A stretch of DNA of 64,000 bases. Source: Actinomycetota bacterium (lineage in GTDB: Bacteria; Actinomycetota; Acidimicrobiia; Acidimicrobiales; CAIXPF01). Below, in pieces: positions 7,804-63,516 of the stretch. The first letter of the stretch is position 1. The number at the start of each line of letters is the position of its first letter. The position numbers and the translations under genes are program-made. The DNA is taken from contig VGBO01000004.1 of NCBI GenBank assembly GCA_016870475.1, forward strand, positions 4,144 through 68,143, read 5' to 3'. The notes under the pieces are model-generated. The model had not been told where the DNA came from, did not search any database, and saw only the letters and a program-made list of their open reading frames with translations.

Positions 7804-8610
7804 ATGGCGGGCGGCGGCTACGAGGAGATCGACTACCGGATCGAGGGCAACGTGGCGATCGTCACGATCGACCGGCCCGAGGCGCGCAACGCCCTCACCT
7901 GGACCACCTACGCCGAACTCGAGGACGCCGTCCGCACGAGCGGCACCGGCGACCGCTCCGAGGTCCGCTGCCTCGTGATCACCGGGAACGGGACGGCGTT
8001 CTGCTCCGGCGACGACGTGAAGCAGGTGATGGGCGGCGGCGACCGCCCGCCGGTGTCGGTCAGCGGACCGCGCGTCCCCCGGCTCACCCCCGCGGCGGAC
8101 GCGCTGTTGCACACCGACCTGCCGATCGTCGCCGCGGTGAACGGCGCCGCGGTCGGCTGGGGGATGGAGCTCGCGCTCATGTGCGACCTGCGCGTCGCGT
8201 CGGAGCGGGCGAAGTTCGGTGAGTTGTTCGTGCTCCGTGGGTTGTGCACCGACGTGCCGGGGATCGGGCGGCTCGCTGCGGTCGTCGGCCGGGAGAAGGC
8301 GGCCGAGCTGGCGTTCACCGGCGCGATCGTCGACGCCGAGGAGGCAGCACGCATCGGCCTCGTCGGACGGGTCGTGCCCCACGACGACCTGCTGCCGACG
8401 GCGCTCGAACTCGCGGGAAGGATCGCCGCCAACCCGCCGCTCGCCGTGCAGGCCATCAAGCGGGGCATGCGCAAGGCGCTCGACCCGGACTGGGACGACC
8501 TCGGCGAGTGGGTGTCGTCGACGCTCGGCCGCCTCTTCCTCACCGAGGACCACCGCGAGGGAGTGAAGTCGTTCCTCGAGAAGCGCCCCGCCCGCTACAC
8601 GGGCCGCTAG
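7804..8610 (+). CDS. enoyl-CoA hydratase/isomerase family protein
   Basis: ATG 7804 gives MAGGGYEEIDYRIEGNVAIVTIDRPEARNALT...ITGNGTAFCSGDD...AAVNGAAVGWGMELALMCDLRVA...FLEKRPARYTGR. The upstream part of the 599-aa track ORF is shadow sequence. Confidence 0.85.
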   Translation: MAGGGYEEIDYRIEGNVAIVTIDRPEARNALTWTTYAELEDAVRTSGTGDRSEVRCLVITGNGTAFCSGDDVKQVMGGGDRPPVSVSGPRVPRLTPAADALLHTDLPIVAAVNGAAVGWGMELALMCDLRVASERAKFGELFVLRGLCTDVPGIGRLAAVVGREKAAELAFTGAIVDAEEAARIGLVGRVVPHDDLLPTALELAGRIAANPPLAVQAIKRGMRKALDPDWDDLGEWVSSTLGRLFLTEDHREGVKSFLEKRPARYTGR

Positions 8611-8661: not shown

Positions 8662-9105
8662 ATGTCTGCCCTCCCGCCGCTGCGGCTCCTGTTGCGCTCC
8701 GAGAGCGGCCGACGCTTCTTCCGCTACTGCGTCGTGTCCGGGTGGAACGTCGTGTTCGGACAGATCCTCCTGTTCGGCGTGCACCTGTGGGTCGAACGAC
8801 CAGGCGCGGCGAACGTGATCGCCGTGGTCGCCGGTCTCGGCCCCGCCTACCTCGTGAGCCGTCGATTCGTGTGGGAAGCGACCGGCAGCCACAGCGTGAC
8901 GGGCGAGATGCTCCCGTTCCTCGGGCTCACGGTGCTCGGCACCATCACCTCGACGGTCGCCGTCGAGATCGCCGGCGCGGTCACCGACGTCCGGATCGCG
9001 GTGAACCTCGCGAGCCTCTCGGCGTGGTTCGGTGTGTGGGTGGTCAAGTACGTGCTCCTCGACCGGATCATCTACCGGCGGCGCAACGCACTCGTCGCCC
9101 ACTGA
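8662..9105 (+). CDS. GtrA-family membrane protein
   Basis: 147-aa hydrophobic ORF with a GtrA-like pattern (RFFRYCVVSGWNVVFGQILLF ... VVKYVLLDRIIY). Confidence 0.75.
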   Translation: MSALPPLRLLLRSESGRRFFRYCVVSGWNVVFGQILLFGVHLWVERPGAANVIAVVAGLGPAYLVSRRFVWEATGSHSVTGEMLPFLGLTVLGTITSTVAVEIAGAVTDVRIAVNLASLSAWFGVWVVKYVLLDRIIYRRRNALVAH

Positions 9106-23491: not shown

Positions 23492-24295
23492 GTGCCCGAG
23501 GGCGACACGATCTGGCGGGTCGCCGCCCGTCTGCGACCGGCGCTCGTCGGTCGGGAGGTGCGGCGGTTCGAGGCGCCGCGCCTCGTCGGGCCGCGGCCGC
23601 GCACCGGTGAGGTCGTCCAGGCGGTCGACGCGGTCGGCAAGCACCTGCTCGTGCGGTTCTCCTCGGGCGTGGTGGTGCGCACCCATCTGCGGATGACGGG
23701 CTCGTGGCACCTGTACCGGGACGGGGAGCCCTGGCGTCGAGCGGCGCACCTCGCCCGACTCGTCGTCGGCGTCGACGGGTGGACGGCGGTGTGCTTCTCG
23801 GCGCCGGTCGTCCGGTCGAGCGTCGACGCCGCCGACGGCGTCGCCCACCTCGGTCCCGACCTCACGTCCCCCGAACCGGATCTCGACGTCGCCGTCGACC
23901 GCCTCGGCCGTCTCGCCGAGGCCGGCACGTGCATCGCCGACGCCCTGCTCGACCAGCGGGTGGCGGCGGGGATCGGCAACGTCTACAAGTCGGAGGTGCT
24001 GTGGGCGTTGCGGGTGCACCCGCGCACGCCGGTGGCCGCCATCGACCCCGCGACCCGACGCGGCCTGCTCGAGCGGGCGCACGCACTGCTGCGGGCGAAC
24101 CTCGGACCGGGTCGGCGGGTGACGGCACCGACGGTCCCCGGCGGTCTGGCGGTGTACGGACGGTCGGGGCGGGGCTGTCCGCGTTGCGGCACCCCCATCG
24201 TGCGAAGCGTGGTCGGCGTCACGGCGCGGAGCACCTACCACTGTCCCCGCTGTCAGGAGCCGACGTCGGCCACGGACGGTACGCTGCGCGCATGA
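23492..24295 (+). CDS. nei: Fpg/Nei family DNA glycosylase (endonuclease VIII-like)
   Basis: GTG 23492 gives (M)PEGDTIWR, with catalytic Pro2/Glu3. An H2TH region is present (LLDQRVAAGIGNVYKSEVLW), and a C-terminal zinc finger (CPRCGTPI...YHCPRCQ). SD GGGAGGA lies upstream. Confidence 0.87.
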   Translation: MPEGDTIWRVAARLRPALVGREVRRFEAPRLVGPRPRTGEVVQAVDAVGKHLLVRFSSGVVVRTHLRMTGSWHLYRDGEPWRRAAHLARLVVGVDGWTAVCFSAPVVRSSVDAADGVAHLGPDLTSPEPDLDVAVDRLGRLAEAGTCIADALLDQRVAAGIGNVYKSEVLWALRVHPRTPVAAIDPATRRGLLERAHALLRANLGPGRRVTAPTVPGGLAVYGRSGRGCPRCGTPIVRSVVGVTARSTYHCPRCQEPTSATDGTLRA

Positions 24296-24834
24296 CGGTG
24301 AGGTTCCTCGATCCACGGGCGGAGCCGGGTGCGCCGGTCGAGCCGTACACACTCGGCATCGATCTCGGGTCCGGCCCGGTGACGATCGGCATGTTGGCGA
24401 ACGGGTTCCCGGACTCGGTGCCGTTCCTCGCCGAGGTCGAGACGGCGTTGCGGACGGTGCTGCCCGACGCCCGGTTCGTGCACTACGACAAGGGCAACGC
24501 GTCGACGATCGCATCGGACGAGCTGCTCGGGCGGATCGTCGGTGAGTGCCAGGCGGTCGTCGCCGCGTACGGCCATTGAGGGTCCTGCACCACCGGCACC
24601 GTGCGTGACGGCGTGAACCTGGCGAGGCGGGACGTCCCCGCAGTGGCGCTCGTCTCCTCCGAGTTCTGGGCGCAGGGCGAGTTCATCGCCCGTTCGGTCG
24701 GCATGCCCGACATCCCCCGGGTCTGCTTCGAGCACCCGGTCGCCGGTGCGGGGGTGGCCGTGATGCGCCGCGTCGCCGCCGCGATCCGTGACGACATCGT
24801 CGCGTCGCTCGCCGCGCGGGGAGTCGCGTCGTGA
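24292..24834 (+). CDS. candidate UGSC-motif selenoprotein (two track ORFs joined through in-frame TGA 24577-24579)
   Basis: ORFs 24292..24579 and 24601..24834 share one frame. The only stop between them is one TGA. Read-through gives ...ECQAVVAAYGH-U-GSCTTGTVRDGVNLARRDVPAVALV... The ATG overlaps the nei stop (ATGA), and the terminal stop overlaps the next gene's GTG (GTGA). Confidence 0.7.
24577..24579 (+). other. in-frame UGA, candidate selenocysteine codon (U of UGSC)
   Basis: The TGA is flanked by GGC CAT and GGG TCC TGC. A stem-loop lies at 24582-24609 (GUCCUGCAC-N10-GUGCGUGAC). Confidence 0.6.
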
Positions 24835-61688: not shown

Positions 61689-62333
61689 TCAGCGGTGCCA
61701 GTCGCTCACGGAGGTCGGCGTGTCGATCCCGGGGCGGAGGTTCGCCGCCGGTTCGGCGGTGCCGGCCGTGAGCCGCAGGGGCACGACACCCGCCCACGCC
61801 GTGGCGTCGAGGTCCTCGTCGTCGTCGGCGGGTCCGCCGCTGCGGACCTTCGCCGAGGCCTCGTCGAGCGCGACGGCGAGCACGGTGGTCTGGCGCATCT
61901 CGAGGTCGGTGTGGGGCCGGAGATCCGCCATGCGGCCGTCGAGGACGTGATCGACGAGGCGGTCGAGCGCGCGGCGCTTCTCGTCCTGGTCGACGACCTC
62001 ACGGGCGTCGCCGAACACGAGCACCGAGCGGTAGTTCATGGAGCTGTTGAACCCCGACCGGGCGAGCACGAGGCCGTCGAGCAGGGTGACGGTGACGCAG
62101 ACGGGCAGCGTCCGGGCCGTTCGCATGGCACGACTCGCCACCGACCCGTGGAGGTACACCGTGTCCCCGAGGCGGGCGTGGATCGTGGGGATCACGACCG
62201 GTCGACCGTCGTGGACGAACCCGAGGTGGGCGAGGAGTCCCTCGTCGAGGATCGCGTCGATCGTCGCGCGGTCGTGGCGCCCACGCTGCGGGTAGCGGTG
62301 CAGCGTCGTCCGGTCGGACATCGGCTCGGTCAT
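61689..62333 (-). CDS. pyridoxamine 5'-phosphate oxidase-family flavin-binding protein (Pyridox_ox_2-like)
   Basis: 214-aa ORF: RGRHDRATIDAILDEGLLAHLGFVHDGRPVVIPT...YLHGS. ATG 62333 overlaps the upstream stop (ATGA). Confidence 0.8.
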   Translation of the reverse strand: MTEPMSDRTTLHRYPQRGRHDRATIDAILDEGLLAHLGFVHDGRPVVIPTIHARLGDTVYLHGSVASRAMRTARTLPVCVTVTLLDGLVLARSGFNSSMNYRSVLVFGDAREVVDQDEKRRALDRLVDHVLDGRMADLRPHTDLEMRQTTVLAVALDEASAKVRSGGPADDDEDLDATAWAGVVPLRLTAGTAEPAANLRPGIDTPTSVSDWHR

Positions 62334-62995
62334 GCGGTTCCCTCACTCTCGGGGGTGGTTTCCCGCCGGGAAAGTACATGGTGCAGGGACTTCCGGTACT
62401 GCTCGAGGTCGAGGGCGCCGGGGAGCAGGTAGGTGCGGTCGATCACGACGGCGGGCACGCCGGTCACCTCCGACTGCACGGCGGTCGTGTGGTCCTCGAG
62501 CACGCGGCGGACGAGATCGTCCTCGTAGGTGTTCCATGCCGTGTCGTAGGCGTCGCCGTCGATGCCGGCCTCGATGGCGACCTCACGCAGCACCGAGCGA
62601 CGGGAGATCGTGCGGTGCTCGCCGAAGTACGCCTCGAACAGGCGCATGCGGAACGCCGCCCCGACGTCGGCGCCGAAGAGCTGTGCGACCTTCCCGCCGA
62701 TCGCGGACGGCACCGAGTGGCTCGGTGGCTCGTGCTCGCCCGACCACGGCACCCGGAACCGCGCCCCCGGTTCGAGGTCGGCCGGTCGAGCCCAGTTCGT
62801 CGTGTACTCGGTGAACCGGTCCATCGGGCGACCGCCCGGCTTCGCCTCCGGGCGGAGCAGGAACGACCGCCACACGACGGTGATCGCATCACCGAACTCG
62901 GCCTGGAGCTGTTCGAGACGCACGGCCCCGACGTAACACCAGGGTCAGAGGAAGTCGGAGAAGACGAGGAGTTCGAGCGGTCCGTCGGCGGTCAT
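62330..62995 (-). CDS. candidate DsbA/FrnE-like selenoprotein (U-P-W-C active site; track ORF extended through in-frame TGA 62945-62947)
   Basis: The track ORF 62330..62923 lacks the thioredoxin-fold N-terminus. Extending the same frame upstream gives ATG 62995: MTADGPLELLVFSDFL-U-PWCYVGAVRLEQLQAEFGD... This is the FrnE-type SD..CPWCY motif with TGA at the first Cys. ATG 62995 overlaps the NUDIX stop (ATGA). Confidence 0.7.
62945..62947 (-). other. in-frame UGA, candidate selenocysteine codon (U of UPWC)
   Basis: Minus-strand codons read TTC CTC TGA CCC TGG TGT TAC. A small hairpin lies directly downstream (CCCUGG-UGUUACG-UCGGGG, 62944-62926). Confidence 0.6.
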
Positions 62996-63516
62996 GCCGG
63001 CCAGTCTTGCCGACCGAGCCGTTCGAGCACGAGGACATCGGTGGGGAAGGCGAGCGCGCCCGGCGGTTCGAGCGGCGGGAAGAAGCCGACGTCGTCGAGA
63101 TCGTCACCGGCGGCGAGTTCGCCACCGACGACCGTGCCGGCGAACCAGATGCCGACGGTGTGCTGCGCCGGGTTGTGGTCGTTGGAGTGCACGGCGACGA
63201 CGTTCCCGAGGACGACGTGCAGGCCGGTCTCCTCGGCGAACTCCCGGGCCGCCGCGGCGCGTACGTCCTCGTCCCACTCGACGTACCCGCAGGGGATGCA
63301 CCACTGCCCTGCGTAGCTGCCCGCCCGCCGACCGAGCAGCACGTCGCCGCGCTCGTCGCGCACCACGACGGCGACGCCGACGGCCGGGTTGAAGTAGCGG
63401 ACGCGCCCGCAGGCCGTGCAGACCGGTCGGCGGCGATCACCGACGAGTCGGGCCTCGAGGGCGCCGCCGCAACGGTCGCAGTGGGTGATGCCGGGCGGAC
63501 CGGCGACCCCGTTCAC
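62992..63516 (-). CDS. NUDIX hydrolase with N-terminal zinc ribbon
   Basis: GTG 63516 overlaps the upstream stop (GTGA). The zinc ribbon is HCDRCGG...CTACG, and the Nudix box is canonical (GYVEWDEDVRAAAAREFAEETGL). Confidence 0.8.
   Translation of the reverse strand: MNGVAGPPGITHCDRCGGALEARLVGDRRRPVCTACGRVRYFNPAVGVAVVVRDERGDVLLGRRAGSYAGQWCIPCGYVEWDEDVRAAAAREFAEETGLHVVLGNVVAVHSNDHNPAQHTVGIWFAGTVVGGELAAGDDLDDVGFFPPLEPPGALAFPTDVLVLERLGRQDWPA

Follow-up and report, generated by a model that had tools for sequence, protein, structure and literature searches.

The UGA-interrupted oxidoreductase gene

The window, by which we mean the whole 64-kb stretch of DNA analysed here, carries on its minus strand a coding sequence (62330..62995) for a FrnE/DsbA-like oxidoreductase whose active site is interrupted by an in-frame UGA codon, very probably a codon for selenocysteine (Sec, U). 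The frame runs from an ATG start codon at 62993..62995 to the stop codon TGA 62332-62330 and comprises 221 codons including that of U17. It contains exactly one internal stop, TGA 62947-62945, and shows no further disruptions. Its translation reads MTADGPLELLVFSDFL*PWCYVGAVRLEQ..., in which the UGA (62945..62947) replaces the first, nucleophilic Cys of a CPWC active site, resulting in a U-P-W-C redox motif at 62936..62947. A first-pass annotation of this DNA had described a frame broken by a single TGA up to ATG 62995, and translation of the minus strand reproduces all of its coordinates; the sequence also bears out its observation of an ATGA overlap, in which this start codon shares bases with the stop codon of the upstream NUDIX gene (TGA 62994-62992). 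The listed open reading frame (ORF; 62330..62923, 197 aa) opens at GTG 62923-62921, the start chosen by gene callers, which encodes Val25 of the extended protein. This GTG (62921..62923) lies both within the loop of the selenocysteine insertion sequence (SECIS)-like hairpin described below and within the active-site helix α1, and is not the true start. In relatives, an in-frame M or V is also present 10-16 codons 5′ of the UGA. Cys20, the second residue of the redox pair, is the sole cysteine of the 221-residue product.

The extended protein matches Pfam DSBA (PF01323) with an E value of 3.1e-29 and 102.6 bits (cut-off 25.6). This match spans residues 9-204 and nearly the whole profile (positions 2-190 of 191), and a complete domain therefore requires the 16 codons that precede the TGA. 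The top PDB sequence match is Deinococcus radiodurans FrnE (5cnw; E 7.9e-15, residues 9-211, ~26% identity), in which the segment SDIACPWCYIG aligns with SDFL-U-PWCYVG of the window protein, placing the TGA on the first Cys of CPWC. U17 is aligned to the same Cys in P0002, a Cys-containing homologue, and in other Cys-form homologues too. The PF01323 match and these alignments support the earlier identification of the protein as a FrnE/DsbA oxidoreductase with U-P-W-C for C-P-W-C, and the comparison with DsbA_FrnE members that had been suggested as a check gives the same result, U falling on the first Cys.

As a stand-in for the window protein, the structure of P0002, which is 56% identical to it, was modelled with AlphaFold (mean predicted local distance difference test score 97). 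In this model β1 comprises residues 4-10, and the CPWC motif opens the helix at residues 15-34 (α1). A Foldseek search with the model returns FrnE 5cnw with a template modelling (TM) score of 0.80 and 3gl5 with a TM score of 0.75. FrnE and SCO1869 are the best fold matches, followed by YjbH, DsbM and kappa-class glutathione S-transferase (GST)/HCCA isomerase, all from the cytosolic branch of the DsbA superfamily. The GTG start was already noted in the first-pass annotation as leaving out the active-site segment; as judged from the P0002 model it lies inside helix α1, and the annotated product would therefore lose the core strand β1 together with the active site. By inspection, the N-terminus has eight polar residues ahead of β1. 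The Pro181 codon (62453..62455) belongs to a G-V-P motif that forms the cis-proline loop of the thioredoxin fold and is an invariant column of alignment A1. With its single Cys, the window protein has no C-terminal CxxxxC regeneration motif. This tail serves regeneration in D. radiodurans FrnE and is missing from some FrnE proteins, so it is optional in the subfamily (PMC8945050).

Two further motifs are invariant or nearly so in both the Sec and the Cys forms of alignment A1, namely P-P-S-H-S (window residues 90-94, 62728-62714) and W-(R/K)-S-(F/Y)-L-L-R-P-E (residues 42-50). Neither is visible in the FrnE alignment, and both appear to be specific to this clade.

Conservation of the UGA codon and of a downstream hairpin

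The DNA of the 80 closest loci was collected from GTDB contigs, one genome per species, from Acidimicrobiia (including the Microthrix and MedAcidi lineages), Rubrobacteraceae and a few other Actinomycetota. At the codon homologous to the first Cys, 75 of these 80 relatives have TGA and five have TGC or TGT. The closest relative, L001, which is 94% identical to the window gene, also has TGA. Additionally, four independent Logan assemblies, built from different SRA runs, encode the 197-aa protein, and all share an identical 666 nt with the TGA in place. The P, W and C of the redox motif are invariant in all 76 UGA forms, and the conservation extends upstream of the UGA, with codons -6 to -1 encoding V (97%), W/Y/F, S (100%), D (100%), Y/F and L (100%), respectively. 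In these six codons the first two positions have an entropy of ~0 and the third has one of 0.6-1.7 bits. With two nearly fixed positions and a variable third one, the stretch 5′ of the UGA must be translated in this frame, and purifying selection acts on it. TGA is the usual stop codon elsewhere in the window, which rules out a reassigned genetic code.

The same UGA leaves its mark on protein databases. Many of the closest homologues recovered by protein search (188-197 aa) start at “M/V-R-L” directly after the position of CPWCYVGA, whereas the full-length ones have CPWC. P0003, P0006, P0008, P0009, P0011-P0013, P0015, P0017, P0018, P0022, P0025, P0033, P0036 and P0049 are truncated at the Val codon (GTG) of the loop, and β1 and the active site are missing from many public entries (188-201 aa) of the “DsbA family”. 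The Val codon of the SECIS loop is the GTG at which gene callers restart, and systematic truncation of the database entries is the result.

Downstream of the UGA, at 62913..62931 on the minus strand, lies a SECIS-like hairpin that consists of a 5′ stem (UCGGGGC, 62931-62925), a loop (CGUGC, 62924-62920) and a 3′ stem (GUCUCGA, 62919-62913). With the U of UGA as +1, its 7-bp stem occupies +17..+23 and +29..+35, closes a 5-nt loop of the form N-G-U-N-C, and begins 13 nt past the UGA. In its short spacer of fixed length and in the G-U of its apical loop, this geometry fits the description of bacterial SECIS elements. The support for the hairpin is comparative and comes from alignment A2, which consists of 76 ungapped sequences. 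In A2, 95.6% of the stem cells are paired, a value that drops to 34-51% if the 3′ side is shifted by 1-3 columns, and 39 cells with double changes are observed against 2.2 in shuffles, none of 500 shuffles reaching the observed value. Specifically, 62 sequences have GC and 11 have CG at pair 24-34, which links the third base of a Gly codon to a Leu/Val replacement, and pair 25-33, with AU in 27, GC in 27 and GU in 18, links Ala/Thr to the Arg codon that is used. The core of the 7-bp stem also emerges from RNAalifold, and synonymous sites have lower entropy within the stem.

The hairpin is specific to genes that contain the UGA. Six or seven of its seven pairs are formed in all 76 UGA forms, in contrast to one to five of seven in nine Cys-form genes. 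All nine Cys forms have also replaced the Val codon of the loop. Four of them fall within the Sec clade, and the peptide that they encode is almost the same. These four are L087-L090 (proteins P0002, P0005, P0010 and P0004), in which only 4-5 of the seven pairs remain and the loop Val is lost. In a neighbour-joining tree, these Cys forms are nested in a large Sec clade, and one Sec trio (L044, L045 and L050) is nested among Cys forms. As far as the sequences indicate, this nesting implies repeated switches between Sec and Cys, a known pattern. A further Cys form, P0028 (287 aa, on a 47,960-bp ENA contig), loses its similarity to the family in mid-protein and at the C-terminus, as if frameshifted or fused, and could represent either a decayed copy or a misassembly.

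A different hairpin directly after the UGA (CCCUGG-UGUUACG-UCGGGG) had been proposed in the first-pass annotation. Its sequence is present in the window, yet it is neither conserved nor covarying. The pairing CCCUGG/UCGGGG (columns 7-12 with 20-25) is 81.6% paired in the alignment against 80.8% in shuffles, 36 of the 75 distinct sequences disrupt one of its pairs, and it competes for bases with the 7-bp stem. The folding analysis downstream of the UGA that had been recommended there does reveal a conserved element, but at +17..+35 rather than at the place of the 6-bp hairpin.

Probable selenocysteine decoding and its alternatives

Another candidate selenoprotein in the window is encoded by a UGSC-family gene at 24292..24834 on the plus strand. 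It is probably the first candidate presupposed by the first-pass annotation, which numbered the oxidoreductase as its second. Its ORF of 180 codons has the motif GH-U-GSC, with the UGA (TGA 24577-24579) at the family’s catalogued Sec position, and matches NCBIfam NF041046, “UGSC family (seleno)protein”, with an E value of 1e-26 and 93.7 bits, under the curated cut-off of 125 bits. The UGA is followed by a hairpin (24593-24611) at the same offset as in the DsbA-like gene, with six of seven stem pairs formed and an identical loop, CGUGC. Both genes use there the rare Arg codon CGT, which accounts for 9% of the Arg codons in the window. Additionally, the pattern TGA-N19-CCGTGCGT occurs twice in the window, exactly at the DsbA-like and UGSC sites, compared with 0.07 expected occurrences, a comparison that is partly circular in that the pattern was derived from both sites.

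A looser hairpin descriptor, applied to 553 kb, picks out the DsbA-like genes, the UGSC gene and a site at 8220. Against a background of 1-7 matches for other codons, it is not discriminating on its own. At the 8220 site, TGA 8220-8222 on the plus strand is followed by a hairpin that fits the descriptor (6/7 pairs, loop xGUxC). The surrounding frame is rich in Arg and has the look of non-coding sequence or of a frame shifted from that of an enoyl-CoA hydratase gene, and the site is probably a chance match. Other pairs of ORFs in the same frame across a TGA (2039-2041 on the minus strand, 9103-9105 on the plus strand, and others) were set aside. The two pairs tested by Pfam, both consisting of ORFs with high GC content at third codon positions, are ordinary adjacent genes. 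Across 2039-2041, a CoA-transferase III is followed by an AMP-binding enzyme, and across 9103-9105 a GtrA-like protein is followed by a nitroreductase, the domains being unrelated in each pair.

The literature places Sec decoding within the lineage. selA, selB, selC and selD were reported in all 84 complete genomes of Actinomarina in a 2026 preprint, Actinomarinales being an order of Acidimicrobiia, and five selenoproteins are listed for Rubrobacter xylanophilus. The presence of the UGSC gene with the same hairpin and this class-level literature provide good indirect support for Sec decoding by the source genome. Taken together, these findings make it highly probable that the gene encodes a 221-residue FrnE-type thiol-disulfide oxidoreductase, predicted to be cytoplasmic, in which SelB and the SECIS element direct Sec to U17 and which operates through a U17-C20 selenenylsulfide cycle.

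Several results weigh against this interpretation. The 64-kb window contains none of selA, selB, selD and tRNA-Sec, and neither do the sequences flanking the 80 related loci (L001-L060 for the tRNA scan). Specifically, tblastn of E. coli SelA, SelB and SelD has no match in the window and the 80 loci, Pfam reveals no Sec machinery among 20 window ORFs, ARAGORN detects no tRNA in the window and no tRNA-Sec in loci L001-L060, and the Rfam tRNA-Sec model has no match across the window at gathering thresholds. As to the hairpin, that of the window alone is not more stable than shuffled GC-rich sequence (z = +0.99), and its conservation is partly due to the conserved peptide V-G-A/T-V-R-L that it encodes. 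No Rfam SECIS model matches across the whole window at gathering thresholds, and nothing relevant is found around the site up to E = 10, a miss that is expected since bacterial SECIS elements are poorly covered in Rfam. Finally, the neighbourhood of NUDIX and PNPOx-like genes is conserved in the closest relative, L001, alone; the context lends no functional support, and we rejected it as a clue to function or substrate.

The alternative that survives best, although improbable, is that the UGA is read through without Sec, by near-cognate insertion of Trp or Cys or by other recoding, and that the hairpin merely slows termination. Bacterial termination is weak where C follows the UGA, and all 76 UGA forms have UGA-C, which speaks for such read-through, as does the merely putative Sec machinery of the source genome. 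However, the position is that of the catalytic Cys in all Cys homologues, and insertion of Trp would therefore inactivate the enzyme. Moreover, the distance of the stem and the G-U of the loop suit the description of bacterial SECIS elements, the UGSC gene has the same element behind a UGA at a catalogued Sec position, and the DsbA-like family is itself already catalogued as a selenoprotein family.

Still less probable is a pseudogene or truncated gene, in which the TGA would be a nonsense codon and the locus would produce nothing functional or only the 197-residue product from GTG 62923, without the active site. Gene callers and databases do annotate exactly this 197-aa ORF, similar truncated ORFs are found in relatives, and the Sec machinery is not visible within the window. 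This explanation is hard to reconcile with a “nonsense” codon kept across 75 species in a frame that is otherwise undisrupted, with purifying selection on the codons 5′ of it, and with a covarying hairpin downstream that is specific to the UGA forms. The 197-residue product would in addition lose β1 and half of helix α1, as judged from the P0002 model. A sequencing or assembly error for TGC or TGT is conceivable in that the TGA is one base from a Cys codon and the source sequence is metagenome-derived, but its likelihood is negligible given the identical 666 nt in four independent assemblies of different SRA runs and the TGA in the 94%-identical L001 and in 74 other species.

Of the two adjacent genes, both on the minus strand, the upstream one (62992..63513) encodes a NUDIX hydrolase, as indicated by matches to NUDIX-family NCBIfam models and by a Pfam NUDIX match on an identical Logan contig. 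The downstream one (61689..62333) encodes a Pyridox_ox_2 (PNPOx-like) protein (PF12900, E 7.4e-45), and its ATG (62333) overlaps the stop codon of the oxidoreductase gene, again as ATGA. A PNPOx-like/FMN-binding split-barrel gene (Pyridox_ox_2 or PNPOx_N) adjoins the DsbA-like gene in the window (61689-62333, minus strand) and in a few otherwise non-syntenic loci, namely L088 (1-473) and L089 (1-475), both on the minus strand, and L062 (996-1553). The two genes may thus form a weak recurring association.

Proposed mechanism and comparison with known systems

By analogy with the SelB system of E. coli, we propose that translation begins at ATG 62995, coupled to that of the upstream NUDIX gene via the ATGA overlap. 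When the ribosome reaches the UGA at 62947-62945, the hairpin 13 nt downstream would recruit SelB-GTP-Sec-tRNA(Sec), and Sec would be inserted in place of chain termination. The subsequent steps are modelled on the FrnE/DsbA family. U17 would be positioned at the N-terminus of helix α1, facing the cis-Pro181 loop, and would alternate between a selenolate and a selenenylsulfide with Cys20. The disulfides of cytoplasmic substrates might in this way be reduced or isomerised, probably in oxidative-stress defence. SelB binding and selenium incorporation, together with the cytoplasmic location, substrate and physiological role of the enzyme, are what we infer from these analogies.

A broader proposal, tentative and in our estimation a little short of an even chance as a whole, is that the Sec form is ancestral and dominant in the FrnE clade of Acidimicrobiia and Rubrobacteria, that Cys forms arose repeatedly with decay of the hairpin, and that one fixed SECIS geometry (a 7-bp stem from +17 and an N-G-U-N-C loop at +24..+28) serves unrelated selenoprotein genes. 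This geometry might then be usable as a lineage-specific descriptor for mis-annotated selenoproteins in the metagenome-assembled genomes of Actinomycetota.

DsbA-like UxxC selenoproteins are already catalogued, and the window gene leaves known selenoprotein biology unchanged. Its practical value lies in annotation, where a UGA stop and a GTG restart yield a “DsbA family protein” without an active site and the Sec reading restores a complete redox enzyme. Together, the DsbA-like and UGSC genes mark an uncultured Acidimicrobiaceae genome as probably Sec-decoding. Additionally, the 76-sequence alignment provides a lineage-specific SECIS example with compensatory changes and a matched Cys-form control, which could improve selenoprotein prediction in Actinomycetota.

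The closest known counterpart of the window gene is the group of DsbA-like form 1 selenoproteins. The Joint Genome Institute name of the homologues, “DsbA family dithiol-disulfide isomerase”, is one that we take to be the name of COG2761. In 2005, Zhang, Fomenko and Gladyshev reported nine sequences of DsbA-like selenoproteins (COG2761, UxxC) from the selenoproteome of the Sargasso Sea (PMC1088965), so the first-pass annotation was right in recalling such proteins from marine metagenome surveys. They were found in 41 organisms in a 2016 survey (PMC5029168) and are entered as “DsbA-like protein form 1, PF01323, UxxC” in a 2026 review (PMC13188914), and UGSC-containing proteins appear in the same selenoprotein lists. 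The window gene shares with this group the PF01323 domain, the UxxC motif with U for the first Cys of CxxC, widespread Cys homologues and a hairpin of bacterial SECIS type 3′ of the UGA with a G in the apical loop. There is no essential difference; the breadth of 75 species among the 80 nearest loci and the covariation test are additions. At the level of sequence, the window gene thus appears to have every defining feature of DsbA-like form 1 (UxxC) selenoproteins, and it probably belongs to the same sub-clade as the published examples (AACY01178397 and NIP15863.1).

D. radiodurans FrnE (DR_0659; 5cnw and related entries), a cytoplasmic disulfide oxidoreductase, resembles the window protein in the SD..CPWCY.G context of its active site and in its fold (TM 0.80 with the P0002 model). 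By inspection, no signal peptide is obvious in the window protein. Distinct from the window protein, D. radiodurans FrnE has Cys22 in place of Sec and a C-terminal CxxxxC motif, and the clade-invariant PPSHS and W(R/K)SFLLRPE motifs set the window protein apart from it. FrnE of S. roseofulvus and of D. maricopensis are similar to the window protein in having no CxxxxC tail.

Periplasmic E. coli DsbA is a member of the same superfamily, shares the Pfam domain and is partially similar over residues 117-196. However, its equivalog model NF008198 scores only 37.7 bits against a cut-off of 279, over residues 118-191, and the window protein has by inspection no N-terminal hydrophobic segment. The fold of the window protein, as judged from the P0002 model, is closer to those of the cytosolic FrnE, YjbH, DsbM and kappa-class GST.

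With respect to the hairpin, the SECIS of the E. coli fdhF type is similarly located within the coding sequence at a short fixed distance past the UGA, has G-U in its apical loop, and is specific to the UGA gene. The distance from the UGA to the minimal SECIS element is ~11 nt in E. coli, compared with 13 nt in the window gene. The two elements are unrelated in sequence, and the putative SelB site of the window gene is distinct from that of fdhF in consisting of a simple 7-bp stem and a 5-nt loop, without a conserved bulged U and without an Rfam match.

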